Assembly: GCF_036971445.1 (NCBI RefSeq)
Contig: NC_091479.1
Coordinates: 75,516,001 to 75,580,000, forward strand
Source of the DNA: Narcine bancroftii
Lineage: Eukaryota
Reading direction: 5' to 3'
DNA length: 64,000 nucleotides
Shown: positions 8,505 to 12,405 of the stretch, in pieces
How the letters are laid out: each line of letters begins with the position of its first letter
Position numbering within the stretch: the first letter of the stretch is position 1
The notes under the pieces: generated by a model
The model's input: the letters and a program-made list of their open reading frames with translations, nothing else
Database searches by the model: none
What the model was told of the DNA's origin: nothing
Program-made: the position numbers and the translations under genes

Positions 8505-8695
8505 TGTTATGCTTGGTTTTTTTTCCCCCAAGAAGAATGACTTTGCGTGGGTTTTAACATTTAACCAACATTATTTTCTTTGAGCTGCTTCAATCGACTT
8601 CCAATGACCGCCCCTGTCATATATCACTTCCGGGTTCCAGCCAACTGTGTGCACTGCATGCTGGGAAATGCAGTTCTTATATGCATAATAACACA
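8505..8695 (-). repeat. 3' LTR (complete, ~190 bp)
   Basis: On the minus strand, follows the PPT directly, starts TGTGTTATT and ends CATAACA. Shares tgagctgcttcaa, cccctgtcat and gcactgcatgctgggaaatg with the other LTR. Confidence 0.9.
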
Positions 8696-8772
8696 TCTTT
8701 CCCCTTAAAAAATAAAAACACAAACACAATACGATGCCCACTAACAAAAGTACCTACATTCCATGGTCATTC

Positions 8773-9461
8773 ACTTTCTATCACTTGCATCTGATGACTT
8801 CTGCCTTCACTAAGTTATTCAAGTTCATTCAAGGCATCCGCAAGATCCGCAGAAATCTGTGACGAGGTTCTTGTTTATCTGCAATTCACGAACAGTCACC
8901 AGTAGCTGTTGATTTTGTTGTTGTAGTTCCTCAACATTACAGTAGGTCACCGGATGTTGAGAAATTACTTCAGAGTAACTGCTTATGTCAGAAGAGCTAA
9001 GTTCATCTTCATGAAAAATAGGATTTCCTCGTGCATCTTCTAGTTCAAACAAAAACACCCTGTTCTGCTGTGAAAGATCTGACACTTGCATTTTCTATCA
9101 CTGATTCTCCCTGTGGAGTAATGAAGCATGCTTATTCACCTCATCAGTGCATTTTTGTAAGTGGCAAATTTCCTTCATGCCTTCTAATTTAGCTGAGAGA
9201 TTTACCACAGATTCTCATGCTTGCGCTTCAGAAGTGGAGCTTCCATCTTTGCTTCTTTCACAGTTTCATCTAAATATTTATTCACTCTCTTATTTTACTG
9301 TTTTGCCAATAGCAATTAATTTTGGGCTTATACATCTCTGTGAACCTCATTCCAGGTTTCACAATCTTGGCCACAGCTGCTGCAGTGGGCGACCATAGCT
9401 GCCAGTTCCTCAGTGTGGTGGTTCCTTTAAGCTTTGTAGTTGAAAGAAGATGGTTTGCATC
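8773..9461 (-). pseudogene. TPR: Processed fragment of nucleoporin TPR (coiled-coil region) captured inside the LTR element
   Basis: Frameshifted translation [170 protein letters not shown] is colinear with recalled TPR ([54 protein letters not shown]). No introns; several stops. Confidence 0.92.
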
Positions 9462-9462
9462 T

Positions 9463-9528
9463 GTTAAGTGTAAAACCAATGTAAAATAATTCTTCTTGAA
9501 AGAACAAACATAACATGGTGTCAGACGT
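9463..9528 (+). promoter_or_regulatory. Inverted LTR end (putative R-U5, 9463-9515) and primer-binding site (9516-9528)
   Basis: gttaagtgtaaaaccaatgtaaaataattcttcttg...CATAACA is the reverse complement of about 8505-8565. It is followed by TGGTGTCAGAcGT, complementary to a tRNA-Leu-type 3' end. Confidence 0.8.
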
Positions 9529-9564
9529 GTCCGAGTGAGTAAGAGATGATAATAGTTCATAAGC

Positions 9565-11982
9565 ATGGATAAGTTAAGCCTCCAACACCGATACAGTTTA
9601 CCAGCAATCTAACCAATAATTGGAAGCGATTCATCATTTATTTTGAAGCTGGTGGAATAGGAGAGACTGATGGAAAATGTCTACATTTCTGCACATGATG
9701 GGTGAAGGTGCATGGACATCTATAATAGTTTTCAAATTGATGAGACAGCTTTCACGTTGGACACTGATGGCAAAATGTGAGTATTTTGTTCCAAGTTAAA
9801 ACGTCATGTTTGAGAGATTCACATTTTACTCCTGTGACCAGAAACAAGGTATGATCTTTGACCAATACTTAGCCAAGCTTCACACACAGACTCCTGTGAA
9901 TTTGGAGATTTGAAAAATTCACTCATTAAAGACCGAATAGTTTGCAGAATCCCATATAATGGATTTCGAGAAGACTGTTGCGTGAAAAAGATTTGACTCT
10001 GCAAACGTCTGTGAATATGAGTAGGGCAGCAGAGAATACATGAGCAGAAGCTAAGGAGCTGCTCAGGATAGACACAACAGTTAAGGAGCTGCACAGAATA
10101 GACATATAATGCATGTGATGAAAACAGATGAGCACCAGGAGTTTCCCAAAGTAAAGTGGTAAGCTCAAATGCAGCAGGTGCGGAGGTAGAGATATTCTAA
10201 AGATGTGTCCACATTATGGAAAGTTCTGGTATAAATGTAGGAAGAAGAAGCATTTTGCAAGGTGCTGCAAAGTTGAGGATACCAAGAGAAAGGTATACAC
10301 AGTGGAAGAAGAAATAGAGGAATTCTTTGTGCATTTGCTACAGACTGCTGCAAGCAAAACAGAATATATTGTTCCAGTGACTGTGAATAAGACAGTATTC
10401 CATTTAAGATCGACACCAGAGCCCAGGTAAATTTGTTGTCTATGGATGATTACAAAACCGTCACCACATAGAGCAAGATTTATCCTGTGAAATTAAAAGT
10501 GACAGACTACACTGGAGAGAATGCTCCAATAAAAGCGGGCTGTATGATGACCTTCAAACACAAAGGGCGGCATCTAAAGTCATAGCTATTGATTGTAGAA
10601 AGGAGAGTACAGCCAATATTAGGTCTGCGTGCATGTGAAGAGCTCGACCTGGTGAAAAGAGTTTTCACAGTGGCTTCACAGACTGAAGGCAAACACACAA
10701 CACTCATGGAAGAGTACCAGATGTCTTTGAGGGACTTGGATGTTTACTCAAGATCCACATAGATGAGATAGTGGCTTCTGTTGTCCATGGATGCAGGAAA
10801 GTACCATTTCCACTTAGAGACAAACCTAAACAAGAACTAGCATGCGTGGAACGGATGAAAGTCATCCAGAAAATTGAAGAACCTACAGATCGAATCAGCT
10901 CACTGGTCATCGTGCATAAGAAAAATGGAGCATTGCATATATGTCTCAATAAAGATATAAAGAAATAGCATTTTAAATTGCCCACACAGGAGGAAATAAT
11001 GTCCTAGTTTGCAGGTGCCAAGTGGTTTAGCAAGCACGATGCATCATTGCGATTTTGGCAAATGAAGCTCAATGAGGAAAGTTTGAAACTATGCACTTCC
11101 AATATTCCACAAGGAAGATACCGCTTTCTTCGGCTACCATATGGGATCTTGTGCACACCAGAAATCTATCTTAAAACCATCCACGTGATCTTTGAAAGTG
11201 TATCTGGAGTTGAGACCATGATGGATGATGTCATTGTATGGGGGTCCACCAAGGATGAACATGGTACATGATGAAGACAAGTGCTTGACATGACGTGGAA
11301 TGACAATTTGAAATTAAATAAAGAGAAATGTGAGTTTGGCATAAAGACCCTGGCCTTCATAGGAGATGAGGGAGAAAAGCCTGATCCAAGAAAGACATCA
11401 GCCATTGAGAATTTTGCAAGGCCCCAAAACAAAGAGTAGGTGAGACGTTTCTTGGTCATGGTGATTTACCTGGCTAAGTTCATCCCTCTTTGGCCGACTG
11501 TGTCAGCACCACTTAGATCACTCCTTGAGCAGAAAAATGAATGGATATGGCCGCATGAGCAAGAAGAATGTTTCCAGGCTCTCAAAAAGACCCTCACAGA
11601 GAAGGCTGTACTAAAATTTTCTGATCTGGATAGACGCACCAGGATCTTGGCTGATGCATCCTGACATGGCCTTGGAACAGTACTCCTGCAGCAACATGAA
11701 GATACATGGCAACCTGTGGCCTATGTATAAAGGGTTTTAACAAGTGCAAAAGTCAAATATGCACAGATAGAGAAAGAGCTTCTTTCCAGCATGTGAAAGC
11801 TTCCATCACTATAGTTTTGGATAAGCTTTGGAAGTGGAGACCGATCAATTTTGTCCAAACCACTGAATGACGGTCCCTTGAGAGTGCAGCGCATGTTGAT
11901 AAGGCTGCAGTAATACGATGTGAAAATGTTCTACATTGCCAGGAAAATGCATGTTTTCAGCTGATACACTGTCTCTAGCAGT
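9565..11982 (+). pseudogene. Degenerate Gypsy gag-protease-RT-RNase H (no integrase)
   Basis: Gag start [20 protein letters not shown]; zinc knuckle CPHYGKFWYKCRKKKHFARCC (~10200-10270); protease FKIDTRAQVNLL (~10403); RT YRFLRLPYGI and MMDDVIVWG (11118-11245); RNase H ILADAS, YAQIEKELL, PGK..ADTLS. Many stops and frameshifts. Confidence 0.92.
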
Positions 11983-12247
11983 TGTATAACTGCCCTGGAG
12001 AAGCGATACCTTAATGTACAGAATCAACCTCATTACATGTCATGAATGACAAACTGGAAAATGAGTTGGCAAATAAGGATGTCTTCTTACGCCAGCTAGA
12101 AGACAAAGATAGACAGTTACAGGAACGTCTGGAACTAGCTGAAGAGAAAATGCAGCAAACAATGAAATGAGCAGAAATTTTGCCAGAAGGAGAAGCTGAA
12201 CTTGCCCAGCGAATTGCATCTCTGGCAATGGGAAGAAGGGCATGGCA
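11983..12247 (+). pseudogene. Processed fragment of liprin-alpha (PPFIA, closest to recalled PPFIA2) captured inside the LTR element
   Basis: [86 protein letters not shown] versus recalled liprin-alpha [89 protein letters not shown]. Confidence 0.9.
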
Positions 12248-12405
12248 TTTACATGGGTTTAACACTTAACCGACTTTATATTCCTTGAGCTGCTTCAACT
12301 GACTTCCAACAACCAACCCCTGTCATGTGTCACTTCTGGTTTCCACCCAACCGTGCGCACTGCATGCTGGGAAATGTAATTCTTTTGTACGCGCATAATA
12401 ACACA
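12248..12405 (-). repeat. 5' LTR, lacking its distal (U5) end
   Basis: Aligns to about 8543-8695 (roughly 80-85% identity by eye) and stops after ...aaacccatgtaaa. Confidence 0.85.

Follow-up and report, generated by a model that had tools for sequence, protein, structure and literature searches.

Fragments of spliced TPR, PPFIA2 and KANK1 mRNAs in a Gypsy-type retrotransposon family of Narcine bancroftii, and a decayed copy with an internal inversion

Layout of the element

We analysed a stretch of 64,000 nucleotides (nt) from the genome of Narcine bancroftii (assembly GCF_036971445.1, NC_091479.1, positions 75,516,001-75,580,000), referred to below as the window, and within it an element at positions 8505-12405. 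The element is a decayed retrotransposon with long terminal repeats (LTRs) that carries, beside remnants of its own genes, fragments of the mRNAs of two host genes, TPR and PPFIA2. A first-pass annotation had described TG..CA termini, a 5-bp target duplication (ATGAT/ATGAC) and gag, protease (PR), reverse transcriptase (RT) and RNase H, and we found each of these in place. It had also taken the element to have integrated as one unit, which is supported; an internal inversion and a joint between RNase H and PPFIA2 that is unique to this copy had been missed. In the following list of features (window coordinates, strand, description), siblings are related copies elsewhere in the genome, termed autonomous if they hold RT, RNase H and integrase and cargo siblings if they hold host fragments.

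8500-8504, plus: left copy of the target-site duplication, ATGAT; 4 of 5 bases match the right copy
8505-8695, minus: complete 3' LTR; the TG..CA termini are at 8505 and 12405
8696-8772, minus: polypurine tract (8696-8706) and 3' untranslated stretch, common to autonomous siblings
8773-9460, minus: decayed fragment of spliced TPR mRNA (shark TPR amino acids 354-608; six host exons), with a 19-nt deletion seen in many siblings
9460-9515, plus: 3' part of the 5' LTR (LTR positions about 132-187); the inverted segment begins here
9516-9525, plus: primer-binding site, inverted relative to the LTRs; siblings have the identical motif directly after the 5' LTR
9573-10713, plus: broken gag and protease; cargo siblings join PPFIA2 at 10713
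10714-11984, plus: broken RT, RNase H and tether, like autonomous siblings; none in the other cargo copies examined
11986-12247, plus: fragment of spliced PPFIA2 (liprin-alpha-2) mRNA, amino acids 315 to about 400; the inverted segment ends here
12248-12405, minus: 5' part of the 5' LTR (LTR positions 1-157); the right LTR consists of the first 158 bases only
12406-12410, plus: right copy of the target-site duplication, ATGAC

The sense of the element is the minus strand. The polypurine tract lies on the minus strand beside the LTR at 8505-8695, whereas the plus strand holds a 56-nt LTR end followed by the primer-binding site and gag-pol; the element therefore reads from right to left, and the block 9460-12247 (end of the 5' LTR, primer-binding site, which we take to be of the tRNA-Leu type, gag-pol and PPFIA2) is inverted both with respect to the LTRs and with respect to the collinear siblings. 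The inversion splits the 5' LTR with a 26-nt duplication at the break, the first 26 bases of 9460-9515 repeating 12248-12273 (LTR positions 132-157) in inverted orientation. Beyond the PPFIA2 piece, the window copy lacks about 300 nt which in siblings lie between PPFIA2 and TPR. The two LTR copies are 85% identical (130/153 aligned bases). Remnants of gag, PR, RT and RNase H were recognised by Pfam (RVT_1, RT_RNaseH_2) and by tblastn with the unbroken relative P0193 described below; no integrase was seen in this copy. RT-RNase H is joined to PPFIA2 a few bases past the joint of the family. None of 39 other top matches continues from RNase H into PPFIA2, and the joint motif matches only the window, with one further loose match. 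The 19-nt TPR deletion is derived, and the window copy thus descends from the short form of the family.

Identity of the cargo

The insert at 8773-9460 was identified as TPR (Pfam PF25785, 3e-17; best matches shark TPR), and six exons of the genome's own TPR gene were matched at 78-97% with the introns gone. The insert at 11986-12247 was identified as PPFIA2 (PF25526, 4e-16; best matches liprin-alpha-2) and crosses introns of the genome's own PPFIA2 gene at 89-90%. The best matches of both came from cartilaginous fishes, and each insert is about 90% identical to the host mRNA. The earlier reading of the inserts as intron-free TPR and PPFIA sequences is thus borne out. The first-pass annotation had added that this would be a family that shuffles gene fragments if siblings carried other cargo, and a third cargo, KANK1, was found: five exons of the host gene are matched at 86-91%, again with the introns gone. 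This ankyrin cargo was assigned to KANK1 since its best match in PDB was KANK1 at 2e-37, compared to about 1e-20 for KANK2 and KANK3. Among 30 candidates, the KANK1 piece matches 19 other loci, with two further weak matches, and locus L168 adds one. All ten KANK1 copies examined lie inside an element of the family, after PPFIA2 and/or before TPR. A Pfam screen for further cargo in 78 internal gaps in 107 loci and 141 frames of the rarer gaps returned only ankyrin (KANK1) and one retroelement protease, and such a screen would overlook cargo that is decayed or has no domain.

In a host TPR exon (L078:6031-6225) a compensating pair of one-base gaps separates 42 of 59 copies from the present host gene, and the copies are nearer to shark TPR there, so that the host TPR gene has likely changed after capture. 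Two sites, one on C1 and one on a small contig (G000:C259:221447-229768), match the KANK1 exons of the host equally well, possibly through an uncollapsed haplotype.

The family and its autonomous relatives

A first look at the genome gave 977 candidates for the LTR with the 3' stretch (8505-8772), 283 for the TPR insert and 223 for the PPFIA2 insert, 40 of which were scored in each case. The siblings share a collinear layout of about 3 kb, which consists of LTR, primer-binding site, gag-PR, PPFIA2 (543 nt), TPR (768 nt), 3' stretch and LTR. A 24-mer across the joint between PPFIA2 and TPR was found at 90 loci, and its reversed control at 0. From the 25 of 61 fetched cargo copies that match this 24-mer we estimated about 220 cargo copies in the family, a number that is rough, as are the proportions given below, since copies were selected for their similarity to the window or to motifs at the joints. 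The first-pass annotation had the chimera built at this locus as a one-off; its cargo was instead inherited from this family.

Among 29 siblings picked by the end of the protease, 19 continue into cargo and 10 into RT. The autonomous siblings have the same LTRs together with RT, RNase H and integrase, and one unbroken relative (P0193) holds a single frame of 1373 amino acids with the domain order PR-RT-RNase H-integrase. This order, direct TG..CA LTRs with a short target duplication, and conserved primer-binding-site and polypurine motifs make the family a Gypsy-type (Ty3/Gypsy) LTR retrotransposon, assigned by these features; one relative is labelled K02A2.6-like by its source. Of 25 cargo copies listed, 14 could be aligned at both ends, and 10 of these have target duplications of 5 bp; LTR pairs are 75-88% identical in 37 copies, cargo and autonomous alike. 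Many dispersed copies with target duplications of their own, beside autonomous relatives with the same LTRs and of the same age, are what a non-autonomous family presents, and the cargo family was likely spread by the enzymes of these relatives. The proposal that the element integrated as one unit, with integrase supplied in trans, agrees with the target duplications and with the integrase of the autonomous siblings.

A second non-autonomous derivative, which has gag-PR joined to the 3' part of integrase and holds no host cargo, was seen at two loci (L091 and L094; G000:C1:272070500-272077750 and C5:318580400-318587600).

Joints and the mechanism of capture

We compared the sequences that meet at the joints. 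The element and PPFIA2 share ATGGAAGA (8 nt; chance 2.7e-4 for random switch points), PPFIA2 and TPR share AAGGAA (6 nt; 4.0e-3), and TPR and the element share GTGGAA just after the integrase stop (6 nt; 2.6e-3). The joint between PPFIA2 and integrase in L134 has 5 shared nt, and two distinct joints between KANK1 and TPR lie on 8 and 6 shared nt. Altogether, shared words of 5-8 nt were found at 6 of 6 testable family joints, and they are the mark of template switching by reverse transcriptase. The word shared by PPFIA2 and TPR spans an exon-exon joint of PPFIA2 and exists only in mRNA, hence the PPFIA2 template was mRNA. The first joint is well conserved, with 26 of 28 aligned copies (33 examined) entering PPFIA2 within a few bases. 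Intron-free, partial mRNA that replaces open reading frames of the element, with shared words at its joints and with neither poly(A) nor a separate duplication, has the properties of an LTR-mediated retrocopy, and the capture of spliced mRNA by template switching, as put forward in the first-pass annotation, stands on the shared words.

All three founding shared words contain GGAA, and other joints are also rich in purines, which may mark a preferred context for switching. At L219:1341-1454 a second PPFIA2 piece on the same strand lies within gag-PR, upstream of the normal joint, and resembles another product of template switching.

Alternatively, LINE-made retrocopies could have been inserted into a resident provirus, or the chimera could be an artefact of assembly. 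LINE-like repeats are indeed common in the window. With regard to assembly, contigs were inspected from four DNA runs on a single sample, which is probably the one that was assembled and hence not an independent check. They cross 8772 with no differences and 11984 with six; the joint at 12247/8 is nearly covered, by a contig with only 30 bases on one side, and 9460 is bridged by none of those listed, so the contiguity that the first-pass annotation had wanted confirmed was obtained for part of the joints. However, no poly(A) tails or separate target duplications, the signs of later LINE insertion, were seen around the cargo at the joints listed, the cargo replaces element sequence, and the same joints recur at 90 loci. 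An origin of the cargo by LINE activity or by misassembly is refuted, and for the element as a whole we consider such an origin scarcely credible.

A contig present in three of the runs (window 11881-12126) spans the joint between RNase H and PPFIA2 with six differences and then diverges; it may represent the other allele, a second copy or a contig artefact.

Stages and proposed order of capture

Three structures of the cargo family coexist in the genome, all with intron-free cargo and all with the first joint in common. In the first, gag-PR is followed by PPFIA2 and an integrase remnant; a motif search found it at 3 loci (control 0), none with TPR and one with a clean duplication. In the second, which most copies have, gag-PR is followed by PPFIA2 and TPR. 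The third has gag-PR, PPFIA2, KANK1 and TPR, occurs at about 20 loci and includes two different joints between KANK1 and TPR. The three PPFIA2-only loci hold 10 more PPFIA2 bases than the form with PPFIA2 and TPR (in L134, PPFIA2 continues through these 10 bases beyond the usual joint into the integrase remnant), and the KANK1 forms replace the joint between PPFIA2 and TPR. This nesting suggests that PPFIA2 was captured first, TPR second and KANK1 third. The survival of a stage with a single cargo agrees with the earlier view that at least two capture events were involved. A 99-nt PPFIA2 deletion and the 19-nt TPR deletion, each present in many copies, occur in all four combinations (9, 8, 6 and 4 copies), which indicates several source elements and recombination between them.

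Two loci (L117 and L202) in which gag-PR is almost directly joined to TPR were considered as TPR-only intermediates and rejected; they keep the family joints and were assigned to later deletions.

Taken together, we are confident that the window copy is a decayed and internally inverted member of a non-autonomous Gypsy-type family of about 220 copies, in which fragments of spliced host mRNAs replaced RT, RNase H and integrase, likely through stepwise captures by template switching. At each capture, reverse transcriptase would have switched onto a co-packaged mRNA from an RNA that was already chimeric, and recombination between subfamilies would have followed. Several points weigh against this. 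The order of capture is read from five informative bases, of which two do not match the host gene, and from three PPFIA2-only loci; the upstream KANK1 exon needed for the joint between PPFIA2 and KANK1 was not in the 8 kb fetched; and the picking of copies by likeness leaves copy number and proportions rough. The few PPFIA2-only loci, which number 3 and share a further integrase deletion, could also be a later side branch, with PPFIA2 and TPR captured in one round in which reverse transcriptase passed from the element to TPR mRNA, to PPFIA2 mRNA and back to the element. Three switches in one round have been described in the available text of Tan et al. 2016 (PMC5131818). However, the PPFIA2-only copies have PPFIA2-like bases beyond the joint between PPFIA2 and TPR that are absent in the double form, and these would call for a return to PPFIA2 mRNA; we therefore consider capture in a single round unlikely.

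Origin of the inversion

With regard to the inversion in the window copy, we lean, with moderate confidence, toward a single aberrant round of reverse transcription, with cargo and autonomous RNAs packaged together, as the source of both the inversion and the joint between RNase H and PPFIA2. The minus strand would have copied the LTR, the 3' stretch and TPR. Plus-strand synthesis would have halted within the LTR, with priming then on RNA inside PPFIA2; at the tether it would have moved onto autonomous RNA and continued along it as far back as the LTR. Both strands would then have been joined, with normal outer ends left for integrase. Since it has no primer site on the sense strand, the copy is predicted to be a dead end.

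Inverted element sequence was seen in 4 of 107 siblings, and two of these structures bear on the mechanism. In L162, inverted sequence of the 3' stretch and TPR interrupts the 5' LTR. The second, L164, is autonomous and holds an inverted piece of a cargo element, a structure that needs both RNAs together.

Around L162 (5015-5180) a unit of inverted TPR, LTR end and start of the primer-binding site recurs about 200 nt upstream of the element. At L163 (5142-5410) a whole inverted LTR adjoins a 5' LTR that is broken and whose end is, together with the primer-binding site, part of a small inversion, and the right end is too decayed for its target duplication to be read. A fifth candidate inversion, L137, was dropped from the count (5 to 4) after its inverted match proved to be a repeat found only in the reference copy.

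A number of observations tell against an aberrant reverse-transcription round. Only L162 and L164 are large and clear, L163 and L165 being smaller or less clear. In contrast to the joints of capture, no more than 0-1 exact bases are shared at the two joints of the inversion. Staggered DNA breaks would also fit, as one break has the 26-nt inverted duplication and the other a deletion. Furthermore, no gag-PR difference is fixed between the autonomous and the cargo group, and of the 4 gag-PR columns that differ weakly, 3 carry the cargo-type base in the window; an autonomous origin is hence not assignable to the 5' part of the window copy. These data leave room for the same family history with an inversion that arose after integration, through two chromosomal breaks (one staggered in the 5' LTR, the other with a loss of about 300 nt) and end joining, the joint between RNase H and PPFIA2 being an earlier and separate event. 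Near-blunt inversion joints and the 26-nt inverted duplication would be expected from such breaks, and since the outer ends and the target duplication are normal, they say nothing on when the inversion arose. Nevertheless, two rare features would then have met in one copy, as inversions occur in 4 of 107 siblings and the long joint was seen once. The duplicated 26-mers differ at 3 of 26 sites, an age like that of the LTR pair (15%) albeit with a wide error, and the inverted pieces in L164 and L162 are left unexplained by local DNA repair. Chromosomal inversion after integration therefore appears possible but rather doubtful, and the aberrant round of reverse transcription is favoured over it.

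Decay and possible function of the cargo

The cargo copies decay neutrally, with pN/pS of 0.82-0.83. What look like shared stops lie at CpG sites, where both strands show mixed decay, which indicates that these stops arose after insertion. In columns where one codon reaches 60%, changes from the host were synonymous in 24 cases and non-synonymous in 2, and none was a stop; 42 mixed columns were skipped. As the stops postdate insertion and the clear columns have no stop changes, an open frame through Gag-PR and cargo was likely present in the source elements. No purifying selection was detected on the captured frame, with limited power as few changes arose in source elements: shared variants were no more constrained than singletons (synonymous transitions 61/126 versus 104/207, p=0.92; transversions 4/32 versus 77/589, p=1).

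The captured TPR fragment corresponds to amino acids 351-605 of the mammalian protein, which nearly equals the nuclear-pore-binding domain, given as amino acids 357-606 in the available text of bioRxiv 10.64898/2026.10.08.757499. TPR is also described as holding unspliced RNA at nuclear pores (PMC5035971, in the part available). The cargo could therefore have been kept as useful, an in-frame Gag-PR-liprin-TPR protein with a pore-binding domain aiding the export of unspliced RNA or nuclear entry. In line with such a role are the in-frame state of 5 of 6 coding-to-coding joints, the about 200 loci of the whole-domain form against 3 of the out-of-frame form, the lack of a clear shared stop and the excess of synonymous over non-synonymous changes. 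However, given the shared words, 45-64% of the joints are expected in frame, and the synonymous excess relative to the host may be the drift of the host gene itself. The equal constraint on shared variants and singletons speaks against use, as does the spread of forms with an impaired TPR: the frameshifting 19-nt deletion is present in 34 of 60 scored copies (a biased sample), and KANK1 forms have spread without the first 95-123 TPR codons. The match to the domain was, moreover, noticed post hoc. We therefore regard retention of the cargo for its usefulness as quite improbable. It would be similarly far-fetched that TPR drove the growth of the family to about 200 copies out of a few PPFIA2-only ones, as a stolen nuclear-basket module moving unspliced RNA out of the nucleus or cDNA into it.

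Host setting and other features of the window

BicD exons were found at window 22735-22944 and 59016-59174, the first of them 10 kb downstream of the element. No first BicD exon was seen within the window, and the BICD exon gave no match in PDB. We take the gene to be BICD1 rather than BICD2, and the element likely lies in BICD1 intron 1. A remnant of an unrelated Gypsy-like RT/RNase H lies at 54622-55460 (minus strand), and a tandem, minisatellite-like array at 51280-52560 yields long repetitive frames. Close copies of a LINE 3' end, presumably RTE-like, lie inside the BICD gene at 18893-19594, 41195-42136 and 57676-58167.

Comparison with known systems

The literature searched, which left Repbase/Dfam and subscription journals outside, held no report of this family, nor of surviving serial stages in a vertebrate Gypsy element. 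TPR and PPFIA are absent from the main text of a survey of vertebrate retrocopies (bioRxiv 10.64898/2026.06.26.734816), whose supplementary tables may list these copies. The first-pass annotation had called a double capture unusual. Multi-gene capture as such is already published in the available text of Tan et al. 2016 (PMC5131818); the capture mechanism and multi-gene chimeras are thus known, and what is apparently new, as far as the literature searched goes, is the survival, in a vertebrate and in so many copies, of stages with one, two and three captured genes.

Capture of mRNA by LTR elements is known mostly from young single copies, in which capture in one round is hard to tell from serial capture. 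Here stages, recombined subfamilies and inverted by-products are numerous enough for a tree, which makes serial capture, recombination of co-packaged RNAs and the rate of aberrant strand transfer testable. Counts of retrocopies would be distorted by the roughly 200 coding fragments of TPR and PPFIA2, and about 20 of KANK1, that are scattered over the genome, and the cargo copies could feed small-RNA silencing of TPR, PPFIA2 and KANK1.

L1 twin priming joins two opposed cDNAs, which yields an inverted product that has lost sequence where they meet. Unlike such products, the window copy keeps both outer LTR ends, and its inverted part would, as proposed here, mix two RNAs. A search for a counterpart among LTR elements led only to HIV, of which proviruses with inversions are described at low frequency (PMC9278108, available text).

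The crocodilian elements CrocERV29 (KIT-ligand) and CrocERV31 (nectin3) are likewise old vertebrate LTR lineages amplified with captured host mRNA. According to the available text (PMC4299795) they are retroviral, with one cargo each, nine and six copies and reported purifying selection, whereas the present family is Gypsy-type, with three cargo genes and no selection signal. Maize Bs1 is likewise one LTR element with three transduced fragments of host genes; it is described, in the part of the source available (PMC13317346), as giving a new chimeric gene in a plant, whereas in this vertebrate the examined copies decay neutrally and intermediates survive. A close likeness is also seen to the LTR-mediated retroposition in animals described by Tan et al. 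2016 (PMC5131818), whose available text covers its mechanism, multi-gene chimeras and limited re-transposition. There too, spliced partial mRNA replaces internal open reading frames between LTRs with joint words of about 6 nt, two- and four-gene chimeras are included, and some loci re-transposed as non-autonomous elements. Those copies are young and occupy single or few sites (18 sites for nine retrocopies), whereas the family described here is old and numbers about 220 copies, among which stages with one, two and three captured genes coexist with subfamilies that recombine and with inverted products.

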